A model generated the notes under the pieces. That model was given only the letters and a program-made list of their open reading frames with translations. It did not search any database and was not told the DNA's origin. The translations under genes and the position numbers were made by a program. From contig JAQBYT010000016.1 of the NCBI GenBank assembly GCA_027622665.1, forward strand, positions 1-64,000: a stretch of 64,000 nucleotides of DNA, given 5' to 3'. This DNA comes from Verrucomicrobiota bacterium. Its GTDB lineage: Bacteria; Verrucomicrobiota; Verrucomicrobiia; Opitutales; Seribacteraceae. Below are positions 29,869 through 38,449 of this stretch, in pieces. Every line of letters begins with the position of its first letter. The stretch's first letter is position 1.

Positions 29869-31290
29869 ATGATACGAATCTTGCGTCTAGCTCTCAATCT
29901 TCCGGCATTGCTCGGTCTCATGGTTCTGCCTTGCTTCTTGGGCAGTTGTTCACGCATCGACCACAAGCAATCCACCTTGGATCCAAAGGGCATCGTGGCT
30001 CAAAACATGTATGACCTGTTCATGCTATCCATCTGGATCACCATCTTCCTCTTTTGCGCCGTTGGCGGGTGCCTACTCTTCGTGCTATGGAAATATCGTG
30101 CAAAGGACGAGGAAGACGCCAAGGAAATCCCACCGCAGACCCATGGAAACCCGAAGATTGAGACTACTTTAATTCTAGTATCTTCGGTAATCTTGTTGAT
30201 CCTTGCCATCCCAACGCTTCAAGGCGTAGTTCTTTTTAACCGTGTGCCCGACCCGAACGACGCGGAAATGCTAAAGAAACTCAAACTGGAACGCTCCACG
30301 GTCGAGGACGCAATCACCGTCAACGTTACGGGAAAGAGATTCTTCTGGGTTTTCGAATATCCCGAATACGGTATAGTAACCGCCAACGAACTGGTCTTTC
30401 CAGCTAGCAAGGCCGTACGTCTCAACCTTCGCACAGAGGACGTAATCCACAGTTTTTGGCTTCCGAAACTCGCGGGCAAAATGGACCTTATACCGGGACA
30501 AGAAAATTTCATCTGGTTCGTAGCCGATCAGGAAAAACTTTTATTTCAAACGGACAAAGAGGGACTCAAGACTCCGGCAACCATCGCAGAAGCAATGCCC
30601 GCCGTGCATGACGGTTCACTGAGAGAAGCTTTGTTCAAGGATCGTTCGTTCACCGACGAGTTCGACCCCGTGGGCGGTTTGTTTTACGGGCAATGCGCCG
30701 AGTTCTGCGGCAATTCACACGCCTACATGCAATTTCGGGCCATGGCACAGACTGATGCAGACTTCGACGAATGGGTGGCACGGTTTCAGGATGCCCAAAA
30801 CCCGACAAAACAACCTCAGCCCTATAATCCCGAAAAGGAATACGCGACCGGAGACGTCGTTCTGATCGCTGACCCCGAACTGGGTGAAGGAGCGCTCCGT
30901 GAATGGGTGGCAACGGGAGACGTAGAGAAAGGTCAAGCACCGGATATAGCTAAAGATTCATGGGGCAAAAGACATGACGACGACTACGAACACGGTAAGC
31001 AACTATTCACGGTCAGTCAGTGTAGCCAGTGTCACGCCGTCAACCGCACGGGACTTGGCGAAAAAGGCCCGAACCTCACCCTCTTCGGGTTACGCACCTC
31101 ACTTGCCGCAGGCTGGATGCGCAACGATGAAGAAAGCCTCGCCAAGTGGCTAAAGAATTCCAACGAAATTAAATTCGGAAACTTGATGTGGAACGGAGAG
31201 GGCGTAAATGACGCTCACCCTGTCCGTAATCTACATAAGGACGAGAAGAAGGTGGATCAGCTAATTGCCTTCCTGCTCGGCCAAAGCTAA
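29869..31290 (+). CDS. ctaC: Cytochrome c oxidase subunit II, caa3-type (CuA + fused cytochrome c), with insertions
   Basis: Lipobox LGSC, two TMs, W.FEYP, DVIHSFW.P.L.GK.D..PG, CAEFCGNSHAYM, CSQCH heme motif, GPNLT. Confidence 0.93.
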   Translation: MIRILRLALNLPALLGLMVLPCFLGSCSRIDHKQSTLDPKGIVAQNMYDLFMLSIWITIFLFCAVGGCLLFVLWKYRAKDEEDAKEIPPQTHGNPKIETTLILVSSVILLILAIPTLQGVVLFNRVPDPNDAEMLKKLKLERSTVEDAITVNVTGKRFFWVFEYPEYGIVTANELVFPASKAVRLNLRTEDVIHSFWLPKLAGKMDLIPGQENFIWFVADQEKLLFQTDKEGLKTPATIAEAMPAVHDGSLREALFKDRSFTDEFDPVGGLFYGQCAEFCGNSHAYMQFRAMAQTDADFDEWVARFQDAQNPTKQPQPYNPEKEYATGDVVLIADPELGEGALREWVATGDVEKGQAPDIAKDSWGKRHDDDYEHGKQLFTVSQCSQCHAVNRTGLGEKGPNLTLFGLRTSLAAGWMRNDEESLAKWLKNSNEIKFGNLMWNGEGVNDAHPVRNLHKDEKKVDQLIAFLLGQS

Positions 31291-31326: not shown

Positions 31327-33270
31327 ATGGCTACCGAATCCGTAAAGTACGTTGCCCCGGAAACGAAAACGAAGACTCTTCTGGATGTCTTCCGTCGCCC
31401 TGACCAACACGTCACGGGCATCCGCGACTGGCTCACCACCATCGACCACAAGAAGATCGGTCTCCTGTACGGTTCGGTCGCCCTCTGCTCCCTGATCTTC
31501 GGAGGCATGCAAGCCTTGCTTATCCGCTCGCAGTTGTGGGCACCGAACCAAGAGTTGCTCACTCCTCGGGAATACAACCAACTGTTCACGATGCACGGAA
31601 CCATAATGGTGTTCCTCGTGATCATGCCCCTGAGTGCCGCCTTCTTTAATTTCGTAATGCCTTTACAGATTGGCGCCCGGGACGTTGCCTTTCCCAGACT
31701 AAATGCACTCAGCTTATGGTGCTTTGTCGCAGGTGCGATCATCCTGAACTTGAGCTGGTTCTTCACTGGCGGGGCCCCTGCTATTGGTTGGTTTGCCTAT
31801 TCTCCGCTCACGGACGTACGCTTCGAGGAAGTTGCTCGGGACATGGGGCCGGACTTCTGGGTATTCGGCATTCAAATCCTTGGTTTGGCTTCGCTCTTGG
31901 CCTCCTTTAATTTCATCGCCACCTTAGTTAACATGAGGGCTCCGGGCATGACTATGATGAGGATGCCTGTGTTTTGCTGGATGACTCTTGTTGTGAGTTT
32001 TCTCATTATTCTCGCCTTTCCCGCCATCACTATCGCTCTGGTAGAGTTGATGTTCGACCGAAACTACGATACTAATTTCTACGATTTTCTGGAAGGAGGG
32101 AAACCCCACCTCTGGCAGCACCTTTTCTGGATTTTCGGGCATCCTGAAGTGTACATCTTGATATTGCCCGCTATGGGCATCGTTTCAGAAGTAGTCCCCA
32201 CCTTTTCTCGCAAGCCACTTTTCGGCTACGGGCTGGTGGTGTTCTCGGGGGCAATCATCGGCTTCATGGGTTTCGCCGTATGGAGTCACCACATGTTCAC
32301 TACCGGTATGGGAATCGTGGCCACCTCCGCTTTCTCCATGCTGACGATGTTGATAGCCATTCCCACGGGAGTTAAGATTTTCAACTGGATTGGCACCATG
32401 TGGGGAGGCAAGATACGCTTCGACACGCCTATGTTGTTCGCCCTCGGCTTCATCACGATGTTCATGGTCGGGGGTTTCACTGGCATCATGCACTCCTCCG
32501 TGCCTGTAGACATGCAGCAACAAGACACCTACTTCGTGGTTGCACACTTCCACTATGTTTTAATCGGCGGTGCTCTCTTCGGTCTATTTTGCGGTTTCTA
32601 CTTCTGGTTGCCCAAGATAACGGGACGCATGTTAAACGAAAAAATGGGGAAGGTTGTCTTCACCCTAATGTTCATCGGTTTCAACACAACTTTCTTCCCC
32701 ATGCATTACCTTGGGATGATAGGACAACCTCGTCGTACCCATTCATACAATGCGGGACATGGCTTCGAGATGTGGAACCAGATTGCGACTGTCGGGGCAT
32801 TCATTCTTGGAATAGGAATTTTACTGGGAGTCATTCAATTCATGAGATCGTTTAGAGACAAGAGCCTCAAGCCGGCGGGCAAAAACCCTTGGGATGCCCG
32901 AAGCCTGGAGTGGACTCTTTCTTCCCCGGTGAAGGAATACAACTTCGCTCGTACTCCAATTATCAAAGCCCGTGACCAAGCTTGGGAAAACAACTATGGT
33001 CCGCGCGACCTGCACTCGGAGAAGGAACCCCTCGACCACCATGGGGTTCACATGCCGGACCACTCATGGTATCCCCTGTTCACCGCCATAGGTTTTCTAG
33101 TACTCGTCATCGGCATGCTCTTTCATTCAAGCCTAGGGACGGACGGCGAAATAATACGCAACTACACCGTTGCGATAATTGGTGGTATCATCGCCATAAC
33201 GAGCATGATCATGTGGTCACTCGAGGGACCCGGTGGCTACCATCTTTTTCCCGAGGAAGATGAGGAATAA
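31327..33270 (+). CDS. ctaD: Cytochrome c oxidase subunit I (type A1)
   Basis: DHKKIG, TMHGT.M, AFPRLN, WIFGHPEVY, VWSHHM, AHFHY. Confidence 0.97.
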   Translation: MATESVKYVAPETKTKTLLDVFRRPDQHVTGIRDWLTTIDHKKIGLLYGSVALCSLIFGGMQALLIRSQLWAPNQELLTPREYNQLFTMHGTIMVFLVIMPLSAAFFNFVMPLQIGARDVAFPRLNALSLWCFVAGAIILNLSWFFTGGAPAIGWFAYSPLTDVRFEEVARDMGPDFWVFGIQILGLASLLASFNFIATLVNMRAPGMTMMRMPVFCWMTLVVSFLIILAFPAITIALVELMFDRNYDTNFYDFLEGGKPHLWQHLFWIFGHPEVYILILPAMGIVSEVVPTFSRKPLFGYGLVVFSGAIIGFMGFAVWSHHMFTTGMGIVATSAFSMLTMLIAIPTGVKIFNWIGTMWGGKIRFDTPMLFALGFITMFMVGGFTGIMHSSVPVDMQQQDTYFVVAHFHYVLIGGALFGLFCGFYFWLPKITGRMLNEKMGKVVFTLMFIGFNTTFFPMHYLGMIGQPRRTHSYNAGHGFEMWNQIATVGAFILGIGILLGVIQFMRSFRDKSLKPAGKNPWDARSLEWTLSSPVKEYNFARTPIIKARDQAWENNYGPRDLHSEKEPLDHHGVHMPDHSWYPLFTAIGFLVLVIGMLFHSSLGTDGEIIRNYTVAIIGGIIAITSMIMWSLEGPGGYHLFPEEDEE

Positions 33271-33333: not shown

Positions 33334-33984
33334 ATGAGCGAAGCATCCGCAGCGCACGCCGGCGAACATCACGAACCCTACACCAGCACGGGCATACCGA
33401 CCAAGAAAGTGCTCATGTGGGCCTTTCTCGGATCGGACTGCATGTTTTTCGGCACCCTTATTTCCACGCACTTGATCTATCGCAAGATCTCTGCCACCGT
33501 CGGAACCAACTACCTCGACATTCGCGATATCTTCGACATTGAGCTAACTTCCTTCAGTACGTTTATCCTGCTGGCTAGCTCTTTGTTCATGGCACTAGCC
33601 GTTTCCGCCATCCACAAAGGCAACCTCAAGAGCACCCGTTGGATGCTGTTGGGAACAATTATATTCGGCGGAATTTTCCTCGCATGCCAAGTATATGAAT
33701 TTACTCACTTCGCCTATGCTCCCGGAAACGAATTGACCCTCTCCAGCTACCGAGGCGCCCCTCATGTCTTCGGATCCACCTTCTTTGTTTTGACCGGAAC
33801 CCACGGCACCCACGTCGCCATAGGTGTTTTCTGGTTGCTGGGATGGCTTGCGTACTCTTTCACCGGAAAGATGAGTACCGCCGACGCAATGGACATCGAA
33901 TGCTGCGGTCTCTACTGGCACTTCGTCGATATCGTATGGATCATCATTTTCCCAGTAGTCTATCTTATGGAATACGCCTTATAG
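33334..33984 (+). CDS. ctaE: Cytochrome c oxidase subunit III
   Basis: MWAFLGSDCMFF, TFILLASS, FFVLTGTHGTHV, GLYWHFVDIVW. Confidence 0.93.
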   Translation: MSEASAAHAGEHHEPYTSTGIPTKKVLMWAFLGSDCMFFGTLISTHLIYRKISATVGTNYLDIRDIFDIELTSFSTFILLASSLFMALAVSAIHKGNLKSTRWMLLGTIIFGGIFLACQVYEFTHFAYAPGNELTLSSYRGAPHVFGSTFFVLTGTHGTHVAIGVFWLLGWLAYSFTGKMSTADAMDIECCGLYWHFVDIVWIIIFPVVYLMEYAL

Positions 33985-34027: not shown

Positions 34028-34720
34028 ATGAGCGGACACGGAGAAGACCCAGTCGAAGAGGAAAGCAAACGCTTCTTCACCTTTTTCAATCTTTCCATGG
34101 CTCTTGTAGCCATAACGGGCATCGAGATTGTCATAATCTACGTTCAAGCCTTCGAGAGCACCACGATAATCGGCGTCCTCTTCACCACCTCCATCGTTAA
34201 GTTCTTTGGCGTTGTCTATTGGTTCATGCACTTAAAATGGGACAAGGTGCTGAACACCGTGCTCTTTCTTATGGGTTTGGTAATCGCACTCGGCACCTAT
34301 TTTGCGGTCGTTAACATGGCTGACGACACGCCAATTATCGATAGCTTCAAAGTCACAGCAGTAGAAAATATTTGGAAAGCCAAAACCCACTACGAGGCCG
34401 GAGCCTATTTGAAACACGAGGACGCTTACTACAAGGCAGGTGCCGCCCACACCTCGGAAGAGGTTTTTGACGCGGATAAGTGGGGAAGGGTCGAGGGCGT
34501 TCCTCATCACATAAGCTGGAAGATAGAAAAAGCAGACACGATCGAAATCAACTCCAAGACTCCCGATAATCCATTTTACCACCGACACCAACCGGAGGAA
34601 TCCGACAATGTGGAAGGTTCGATCATCGGTATACTCGCTAAAGTTTCGACTAAGGCAGATTTCCGCATCAAGGCTCGATCCGAAGCGAATTGGAGTGAGC
34701 AAGTCAAAGAGGAAGAGTGA
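34028..34720 (+). CDS. ctaF: Cytochrome c oxidase subunit IV with ~130-aa soluble C-terminal extension
   Basis: Three TMs with T..E and K...V..WFMHLKWD motif; position after ctaE. Confidence 0.85.
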   Translation: MSGHGEDPVEEESKRFFTFFNLSMALVAITGIEIVIIYVQAFESTTIIGVLFTTSIVKFFGVVYWFMHLKWDKVLNTVLFLMGLVIALGTYFAVVNMADDTPIIDSFKVTAVENIWKAKTHYEAGAYLKHEDAYYKAGAAHTSEEVFDADKWGRVEGVPHHISWKIEKADTIEINSKTPDNPFYHRHQPEESDNVEGSIIGILAKVSTKADFRIKARSEANWSEQVKEEE

Positions 34721-34816: not shown

Positions 34817-35605
34817 ATGCTAAATTCCTCTCCTGTAACTCTTCTGCATTGGCACACCGAACCCGCCTTGGTGGGTGGTCTGCTGTTCACCGCATGGTGC
34901 TATGCTTTAATCGTAGGACCTTTCAGGGAACAAATTGCCCCCGGTATGCCTTTCCCCAAGAAGCAGGCATGGTGGTTTGCCTCCGGAATCATCAGTTTCT
35001 ATTTGGCGGTGGGTTCTCCGCTGGATCCCTTGGGCGAAAACTATCTCTTTTTCGCCCACATGATCCAGCACAACATCCTGATGTACGTAAGTCCCCTCTT
35101 CTTGCTCTTTGGCATACCTGGGCAATTATGGGACGAGCTGTTTATAAGGCGACCCGATATCAAAGCCCTTTGCCGCCTATTGTTTAATCCCATCGTAGCG
35201 GGTTTAGGCTTTACGCTCGTCTTTTCCTTTTGGCATTTCGGGACTTTCTATGAAGCCGCCATCCGGAACAAAACACTCCATATGGCGGAACACTTGTCGA
35301 TGTTCCTTACCTCATTCGCCATGTGGTGGCCTATCGCCAGTTCATCCAAGCAACTTCCACCGATCCGGTATGGTCCACAGATGCTTTTCATTCTGGCGCT
35401 GATGCTCGGACAAACCCCCATATTCGCGACACTCACCTTCTCCCAGGAAGTTCTTTACGATACCTATTTTTATGCCGAGCGCATCATCGACATAACTCCG
35501 CTCGAAGATCAGAGATCGGGTGGCGTTGTGATGAAGATTGCAAACTTGATCGTCTCCGTGAGCGTTTTGGGATCTATTTTTTACCGATGGTCAAAAGAGC
35601 GCTAA
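34817..35605 (+). CDS. ctaG: caa3-type cytochrome c oxidase assembly factor CtaG
   Basis: GSPLD.LGE.YLF.AHM.QH, FWH...YE, H..EH, MWWP, LEDQ..GG..MK. Confidence 0.88.
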   Translation: MLNSSPVTLLHWHTEPALVGGLLFTAWCYALIVGPFREQIAPGMPFPKKQAWWFASGIISFYLAVGSPLDPLGENYLFFAHMIQHNILMYVSPLFLLFGIPGQLWDELFIRRPDIKALCRLLFNPIVAGLGFTLVFSFWHFGTFYEAAIRNKTLHMAEHLSMFLTSFAMWWPIASSSKQLPPIRYGPQMLFILALMLGQTPIFATLTFSQEVLYDTYFYAERIIDITPLEDQRSGGVVMKIANLIVSVSVLGSIFYRWSKER

Positions 35606-38008: not shown

Positions 38009-38449
38009 ATGGAAAACATTGGCGTAAAGGCGATTGCATCCGACATGAACCTTTCCTCCTCCCTTCTCTACAAGTGGTGTCAACCCAACAACGAAGAAGA
38101 TGAAAACGGAACCACCAATCCACTCGATCGTGTTGCCAAAATCTTCGAAGCCACGGGCGATGAACACCTTTTAGCTTGGATTTGCCAACAAGCAGACGGT
38201 TTTTTCTCGCCAAATCCTAAGGTAGGCGATGCCGCCGAGAACCTTTTTGCCAACACGCATCGGCTAGTGACCGAGTTTTCCGATCTTCTTCGTGAAGTCT
38301 CCCAGAGTTATGACAAAGATGGCGATATCTGCAAAGAGGATTCGCGGCGCATACGTCGTGAATGGGAAGAACTCAAAGGTGCGGGCGAATCTTTTGTCAA
38401 GGCGTGCGAGAAAGGTTTTTTTAAGATCGAAGAAAAAAGAGTGCTGTAA
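38009..38449 (+). CDS. Phage CII-like / HTH regulatory protein
   Basis: N-terminal HTH-like KAIASDMNLSSSLLYKWC, NPLDR, helical C-terminus with DGDI...D...IR.EWEELK; no phage neighbours. Confidence 0.55.
   Translation: MENIGVKAIASDMNLSSSLLYKWCQPNNEEDENGTTNPLDRVAKIFEATGDEHLLAWICQQADGFFSPNPKVGDAAENLFANTHRLVTEFSDLLREVSQSYDKDGDICKEDSRRIRREWEELKGAGESFVKACEKGFFKIEEKRVL

Follow-up and report, generated by a model that had tools for sequence, protein, structure and literature searches.

The new element described here is a superstructure with modules of predicted CBM5/12 fold, found throughout one family of marine Opitutales and kept under selection, on a known type of caa3 cytochrome c oxidase. Our preferred reading, to which we give a probability of about one half, is that the C-terminal extension of subunit IV is a lineage-specific structural cap in the periplasm, often itself likely N-glycosylated, rather than a chitin anchor. 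The window, i.e., the whole stretch of DNA that was analyzed (64,000 nucleotides), contains the following features of the oxidase locus.

25966..28618, minus strand: divergent genes upstream of the operon, for a SCO1/SenC protein, a 312-aa unannotated protein, and a DUF420 protein
28899..29837, plus strand: CtaB heme o synthase
29869..31290, plus strand: subunit II, 473 aa, with a lipobox-like signal, two transmembrane (TM) helices, a CuA cupredoxin domain, and a fused cytochrome c
30526..30672, plus strand: insertion of about 50 aa within the cupredoxin domain of subunit II, family-specific in form
30814..30975, plus strand: second predicted CBM5/12-fold module, subunit II residues 316 to 369, at the CuA/cytochrome c junction
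31327..33270, plus strand: subunit I, GHPEVY helix VI motif and His ligand motifs intact, above the TIGR02891 cut-off
33334..33984, plus strand: subunit III
33712-33765, plus strand: family-conserved loop of subunit III, candidate docking site for the subunit IV domain
34028..34720, plus strand: caa3 oxidase subunit IV (CtaF/COX4_pro) with C-terminal extension, 230 aa (ORF, Pfam, NCBIfam)
34073..34318, plus strand: three predicted TM helices of subunit IV, residues 16 to 97, likely N-in/C-out (PF03626, hydropathy, K/R bias)
34325..34363, plus strand: strand 1 of the predicted Ig-like beta-sandwich of subunit IV, residues 100 to 112 (structure model)
34364..34495, plus strand: predicted CBM5/12-fold module of subunit IV, residues 113 to 156, between strands A and B (profiles, model)
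34466-34468, plus strand: F147 of subunit IV, the site equivalent to ChBD Trp687 (alignment register)
34496..34699, plus strand: rest of the predicted Ig-like sandwich of subunit IV, residues 157 to 224, with conserved polar residues and a short last strand
34682..34696, plus strand: D/E-x-N-x-S/T sequon of subunit IV (Asn221), candidate PglB N-glycosylation site
34817..35605, plus strand: CtaG assembly factor

The locus looks intact as a caa3-type cytochrome c oxidase operon. The gene order is ctaB-II-I-III-IV-ctaG, with subunit IV as the fourth structural gene; the Bacillus-type caa3 operon has the order ctaB-C-D-E-F-G. Subunits I and II exceed the NCBIfam cut-offs, and the alignment contains the CuA, heme c CxxCH, GHPEVY, and His ligand motifs, which we take together to mark a caa3-type oxidase of the A family. 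The model of the soluble part of subunit II matches Thermus thermophilus caa3 (2YEV; Z of 23.6 over 207 residues). Residues 25 to 87 of subunit IV match Pfam COX4_pro (PF03626) above the cut-off (36.9 versus 28.9 bits), all 53 homologs match it at an E value of ≤0.1, and three hydropathy peaks are visible. Scanning the GTDB species collection yielded 60 loci out of 225 pattern matches, and in 56 of them subunit III directly precedes subunit IV, the remainder being interrupted by contig ends. In bacteria, subunit IV of the oxidase is usually no more than a membrane peptide. Compared with the caa3 oxidases of the Thermus or Bacillus type, subunit IV has here 230 aa, with a soluble extension of 130 residues, and subunit II contains two inserts of about 50 residues. 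The peptides quoted by an earlier reading made from the sequence alone (the sequence-only reading) are exact and all lie within the ORF of subunit IV, with 34373-34483 coding for its 37-residue stretch.

Two other genes of the window deserve mention. The 312-aa protein between the SCO and DUF420 genes (26599-27537, minus strand) contains a His motif, has no match in Pfam or NCBIfam, and is present in 41/60 loci; a copper-handling assembly factor would be a guess. At 38009-38449 (plus strand), there is a weak, below-cut-off match to the phage YmfL regulatory family, in surroundings that are otherwise housekeeping.

The extension of subunit IV is predicted to be an Ig-like sandwich carrying a CBM5/12-fold module. 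Residues 116 to 143 give a weak match to CBM_5_12 (PF02839), below the Pfam cut-off (17.2 versus 26.2 bits; E value, 0.0055), while the gathering score is exceeded by the orthologs of two other genomes, G001 (27.3) and G015 (26.4). As PF02839 is matched at an E value of ≤0.1 by 44 of the 53 aligned homologs (best, 6.8e-10) and a family profile detects the CBM12 domains of Vibrio chitin deacetylases (2.5e-4) and, weakly, the ChiA1 chitin-binding domain (ChBD) 1ED7 (2.2), the match is no chance hit. Core positions of CBM12 are kept in nearly all of the 119 subunit IV sequences (W116 in 118, Y122 in 117, Y/F135 in all, and W152 in 118). An AlphaFold2 model was obtained for residues 96 to 230 from the 119-sequence alignment (pLDDT of 89.9), and its module (residues 113 to 156) superposes best on the tail fiber of phage 7-7-1 (9rkv; Z of 7.4, root mean square deviation [rmsd] of 1.1 Å over 43 residues), followed by the Anabaena CIS cap 7b5i (Z of 7.1), the Pam1 tailspike 7eea (7.0), chitinase 4tx8 (6.8), and the Vibrio deacetylase 4ny2 (6.5; 1.1 Å over 42 residues). 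These Z values are middling, and the CBM12 link is independently visible in the sequence. Foldseek alone found no match at an E value of ≤0.001 in PDB or BFVD, and the ESM Atlas gave no usable match for this extension or for the subunit II module.

The rest of the extension superposes over about 80 residues on several beta-sandwiches (GH2 Ig-like, FN3, PKD 4xed, and SoxZ; Z of 6 to 7.3). In the model, the first and second strands of the sandwich flank the inserted module, and the last strand has only about 4 residues, which makes it short in comparison with those domains. The Ig-like host domain proposed by the sequence-only reading is supported by the model; it has no Pfam match, and no sandwich family, PKD and FN3 included, stands out structurally, with all Z values under 8. 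Relatives of the Ig part outside subunit IV were absent among the best 150 matches of the extension profile and, as weak evidence, among 44 candidates when residues 155 to 228 were compared with longer proteins.

Among the 40 relatives searched, 21 of the 24 marine Opitutales genomes of the same family code for the full-length subunit IV. The three family genomes that have no subunit IV match are one that is 51% complete and two from a genus with a different oxidase subunit I. In the genomes of other families, the match covers the membrane part only (9/16), and the eight outgroup Opitutales ORFs that were inspected stop 10 to 45 residues after TM3, with no extension. The 60 GTDB loci all belong to Opitutales, Opitutia/Opitutae, Puniceicoccaceae, or Verrucomicrobia and include "Candidatus Seribacter sulfatis" and "Candidatus Chordibacter forsetii" (L085 and L118). 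The family of these genomes is presumably the one called MB11C04. In the accessible text of PMC8857213, the MB11C04 family is described as recurrent in blooms, flagellated, and mostly living as free single cells.

Within these loci, the membrane part was found in 58/60 and the module of subunit IV in 59/60, all misses being located at contig ends, while of the 47 loci with a subunit II gene, 45 have the module of subunit II, the other 2 being interrupted by contig ends. The co-occurrence of both modules that had been proposed is thus family-wide. Database searches returned 175 proteins matching subunit IV, the best 120 of which each cover ≥82% of the query, so the architecture extends well beyond a single assembly; these matches and the recurrence throughout the family rule out an assembly artifact or chimera. 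The extension is under purifying selection, module included, with dN/dS values of 0.061 for the TM part, 0.085 for the Ig part, and 0.143 for the module (nine disjoint close pairs from 52 coding sequences). Mean pairwise identity decreases in the same direction (83%, 57%, and 37%), making the module the least conserved part.

The distribution of positive charges points to an N-in/C-out topology, as mean K+R counts over 53 sequences are 1.8 in the N-terminal flank and 2.0 in loop 2, versus 0.3 in loop 1 and 0.4 after TM3. A cytoplasmic C terminus is disfavored both by this bias and by an enrichment of sequons in the soluble domain. The extension is accordingly supported as periplasmic, in agreement with what the sequence-only reading had deduced from three TM helices.

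The motif D/E-x-N-x-S/T, which we take to be the PglB consensus sequon, occurs in the soluble domain of 52/119 subunit IV homologs. There are 55 such sites versus 19.4 in shuffled sequences (none of 300 shuffles reached 55) and 15 versus 5.7 after dereplication at 70%; the reversed motif was also raised before dereplication (38 versus 19.4), with 18 versus 11.3 at 80% and 8 versus 5.7 at 70%. Enrichment is about fourfold in the module itself, with 41 sequons in 119 modules versus 8.9 shuffled and 9 reversed, and 20 in 65 versus 5.2 shuffled after dereplication at 70%. As sequons are common to kin, the shuffle counts overstate the significance. The N-terminal and membrane parts contain no sequon in 118 sequences, and plain N-x-S/T is not enriched. 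Modules elsewhere have about 0.05 sequons each (763 outside repeats, 21 subunit II modules, and 39 flagellar or surface copies). Sequon sites fall in nine columns, and parsimony on a tree built without the module (118 rows, the window row left out) requires about 11 changes in the module. One group of 20 members was picked because it has the site; here, D and N never change, S and T replace each other, and the neighboring residues vary. All 18 sequences with Trp147 belong to this group and sit in one clade, and the sequon Asn immediately precedes the Trp.

An STT3/PglB-type transferase is encoded in 20/24 family genomes versus 0/16 genomes of other families of the order. The one of this genome (contig C43, 2663-5929, minus strand) has the WWDYG motif. 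A 1,652-aa surface protein on contig C42 contains 56 sequons versus 3 reversed, and five flagellar ORFs have 0 or 1 each. The presence of the PglB gene together with the sequon enrichment supports a periplasmic domain that is likely N-glycosylated in many members of the family; as 67/119 homologs have no sequon in the soluble domain, glycosylation cannot be essential. Two genomes of genus g2 (G009 and G013), the genus with a different oxidase subunit I, code for PglB and for the module in other proteins and have no match to caa3 subunit II or IV.

The module is not specific to the oxidase, an option that was rejected because it has expanded across the flagellar and surface proteins of the family. 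PF02839 matches were found in 24/24 family genomes versus 2/16 others. In this genome, FlgL matches PF02839 above the cut-off, the large surface protein matches it as well, and FlgK, FliD, and flagellin match it more weakly; reversed-ORF decoys had zero matches at the 11-bit threshold. Several of these module-bearing proteins are greatly enlarged, specifically, FlgK (1,084 aa), FlgL (1,072 aa), flagellin (939 aa), and FliD, which is apparently split over two contig ends (contig C3, 47806-54276, L158; contig C8, 4076-6892 and 9861-12773, L160; contig C15, 50915-54409, L159), and module-bearing FlgL orthologs recur throughout the family. The surface protein on contig C42 (25759-30714, plus strand) contains one CBM5/12-like module. 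Another one opens an ORF interrupted by the start of the contig (window 7-75, minus strand), and similar N-terminal modules occur in ORFs of 329 to 391 aa in L132 and L156.

The extension profile scored at an E value of ≤0.001 with 597 of 1.84 billion representatives. Among the best 150 of these 597, 8 are variants or fragments of subunit IV, and in the others, little beyond the module is matched, often in long arrays with up to 22 matched stretches per protein. All 37 outside relatives scanned against Pfam match PF02839, and all 13 scanned against PHROGs match a tail fiber family, possibly via the module itself; two fragments of the window had no PHROGs match. The profile of the subunit IV modules scores outside repeats, themselves chosen with a related profile, with up to 42.6 bits and the non-oxidase copies of the family with up to 21.9 bits.

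Given a module so promiscuous, it could be a mere passenger, i.e., a mobile module that landed in tolerant loops and is kept, with no function of its own, as its removal disturbs folding. The presence of the module in every family genome and its low identity would fit, and so would two homologs with extra inserts, P0068, with a near-identical second module copy in another loop (possibly a misassembly), and P0122, where about 85 aa are inserted in this loop. Other Opitutales families also have unrelated large loop insertions in the same subunits (subunit III in L029 and L030 and subunit II in L053, L058, and L059), which suggests repeated accretion in the order. However, no loss of the module was detected in the 59 loci spanning it, even in genomes of 1.6 to 2.3 Mb, its dN/dS is about 0.14, and sequons have been gained repeatedly, so we consider this explanation very unlikely.

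The second module of the enzyme, in subunit II, is undetected by Pfam, and its assignment comes from the model, in which residues 316 to 369 superpose on 4tx8 (Z of 6.9, rmsd of 1.5 Å over 46 residues) and on 4hmc (1.1 Å over 42 residues). The CBM5/12 fold that the sequence-only reading had assigned to both subunits is therefore backed by model superpositions for both, and by profiles for subunit IV. Its claim of two independent acquisitions did not find support; the profile of the subunit II modules ranks those of subunit IV (up to 16.1 bits) above all other copies tested (<10 bits), a weak hint of a common origin. In the 21 subunit II sequences, aromatics are kept in the core alone, the binding sites known from CBM5 and CBM12 having none, and charged residues D, R, and E are invariant in 20 or 21. 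The insertion of about 50 aa in the cupredoxin domain (30526-30672) is conserved in the family as well, and outgroup L053 has a different insertion in the same place. Subunit III of the family has a conserved longer loop (55 loci), absent from the 8 aligned outgroup sequences.

The position of the subunit II module between the CuA and cytochrome c domains, together with its invariant charged residues, could indicate that the additions of subunits II and IV serve electron supply, by docking alternative complex III (ACIII) or a periplasmic cytochrome c to form a supercomplex. The genome does contain an ACIII-type operon (contig C15, 17465-29155, minus strand), but it is joined to a cbb3-type oxidase and not to the caa3 enzyme, no CBM-like module was detected in its ACIII subunits, and in nine genomes of other families, the same oxidase occurs with no such extension. 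This adaptor role appears quite unlikely.

The module is modeled with the CBM5/12 fold, and functional CBM activity is putative. In the available part of PMC3701571, the core of ChBD-ChiA1 is given as W656, Y662, V668, Y670, Y675, C/A677, and W696, and the surface-exposed Trp687 as the main ligand residue. Gln679 is another residue that contributes to binding. In the register taken from the equal-length match to 1ED7, subunit IV retains this core except Y670, keeps His141 in 105/119, has a variable residue at the Gln679 site, and is aromatic at the Trp687 site in 112/119, with Phe in 94 and Trp in 18. Phe is usual at this site in the outside repeats too (221/250). CBM5s, according to excerpts of PMC8449059, bind through a consecutive exposed Y-W or W-W pair, and no such pair after the third strand is conserved in the subunit IV or II alignments. 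GH18 genes are present in 9/24 family genomes, plus this one, and genus g3 has the module in 7/7 genomes and GH18 in 0/7. A link to chitin catabolism as the main role was rejected, as GH18 is not codistributed with the module. Phe at the Trp687 site, the variable 679 position, the subunit II module without binding aromatics, and the patchy GH18 genes make chitin an unlikely ligand. The "glycan-tethered" oxidase of the sequence-only reading is, for these same reasons, one option among several and not supported as it was stated.

Endogenous HexNAc glycans are a possible ligand, for subunit IV only. Penicillin-binding proteins are present in 41/41 genomes, which makes an accessible HexNAc polymer likely. 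The module of subunit IV would then be a lectin on an Ig stalk, binding peptidoglycan strands or the PglB N-glycans of neighboring proteins and so positioning or clustering the oxidase. This agrees with the conserved CBM12 core and His141, with the aromatic at a site that is the main ligand residue in ChBD-ChiA1 (PMC3701571, in the part available), with the common family distribution of PglB and the module expansion, and with the location of the module, which strand order would place at the membrane-distal end of the sandwich. Several points speak against such a tether. Chitin chains are what the fold is known to bind (PMC8449059, in excerpt). Such chains would not reach the periplasm. Moreover, the site has Phe and not Trp in most sequences, Gln679 is not conserved, the sequon Asn lies right before the Trp in all 18 Trp versions, where its own glycan could cover the site, and the subunit II module lacks binding aromatics. 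The parts of PMC10811340 and PMC12506485 available contain no ligand data for the fold. We regard the tether as possible, if rather improbable. A bolder version, in which the oxidase would read glycans, with the subunit IV module binding the cell's own HexNAc glycans, glycosylation of the ligand loop switching or preoccupying the site, and a phage-derived lectin positioning the enzyme, seems unlikely.

A structural use of the module has a precedent in phages. Residues 1 to 120 of the long tail fiber of phage 7-7-1 are described as the baseplate anchor in the accessible portion of PMC12796354, and residues 75 to 117 of 9rkv, which are those matched by the subunit IV module, fall in this region (the identity of the chain is inferred from its length). 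The cap that we favor would have originated when the family's ancestor took up the module out of a pool of phage-tail-type repeats, which also spread over its own flagellar proteins. The extension is likely docked against the outer face of subunits III/I, where the conserved membrane-proximal face of the sandwich may pack on the family-conserved loop of subunit III, a contact suggested by conservation. The constraint on the Ig part, close to the level of the TM part, and its near-invariant polar residues (D99, D170, E173, N181, D211, R213, K215, R217, S218, and E219) are what one would expect an interface to show. The module would point outward, with PglB modifying exposed loops in many lineages, and the N-glycosylated cap could stabilize or shield the oxidase complex; in Campylobacter, N-glycans have a stabilizing role. 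The aromatic at the Trp687 site and His141 speak against the cap, because a binding function would also explain them.

Among known systems, the CBM12/ChtBD3 domains (ChiA1 1ED7; Vibrio 4NY2/3WX7) have the fold predicted here (rmsd of 1.1 to 1.9 Å over 42 to 46 residues) and share with the subunit IV module the core W, Y, V, Y/F, A/S, and W and His141. Unlike them, the latter is on no glycan-active enzyme, is nested in a different domain of a respiratory membrane subunit, usually has Phe at the Trp687 site, and lacks Gln679 and Tyr670. The phage virion repeats (9RKV, 7EEA, and 7B5I; PHROG 9851) are its best structural matches (Z of 7.0 to 7.4) and its nearest relatives in sequence, with the same Phe state. 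However, these relatives carry long arrays, whereas the oxidase, a cellular core enzyme, has one copy per subunit, and the subunit IV module is enriched in sequons.

Among the papers listed by literature searches, which covered few subscription papers, there was no report of a CBM module on an oxidase, of PglB in connection with an oxidase, or, judging by titles and the openings of abstracts, of a CBM on flagellin, nor a description of the present system among tail fiber or CBM12 reports; nothing useful came up on CyoD topology. If the module binds a glycan, it would represent a way of positioning respiratory complexes that these same searches did not find in print. For surveys of carbohydrate enzymes, the CBM5/12 matches in these genomes need not signal chitin use. 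The enzyme is also a candidate N-glycosylated heme-copper oxidase and a bacterial example of subunit accretion that can be traced over dozens of genomes. On a core respiratory enzyme, an entire family of marine heterotrophs carries a folded, likely periplasmic superstructure, with a module that is common to the oxidase, phage tail fibers, and the family's own flagellar proteins.
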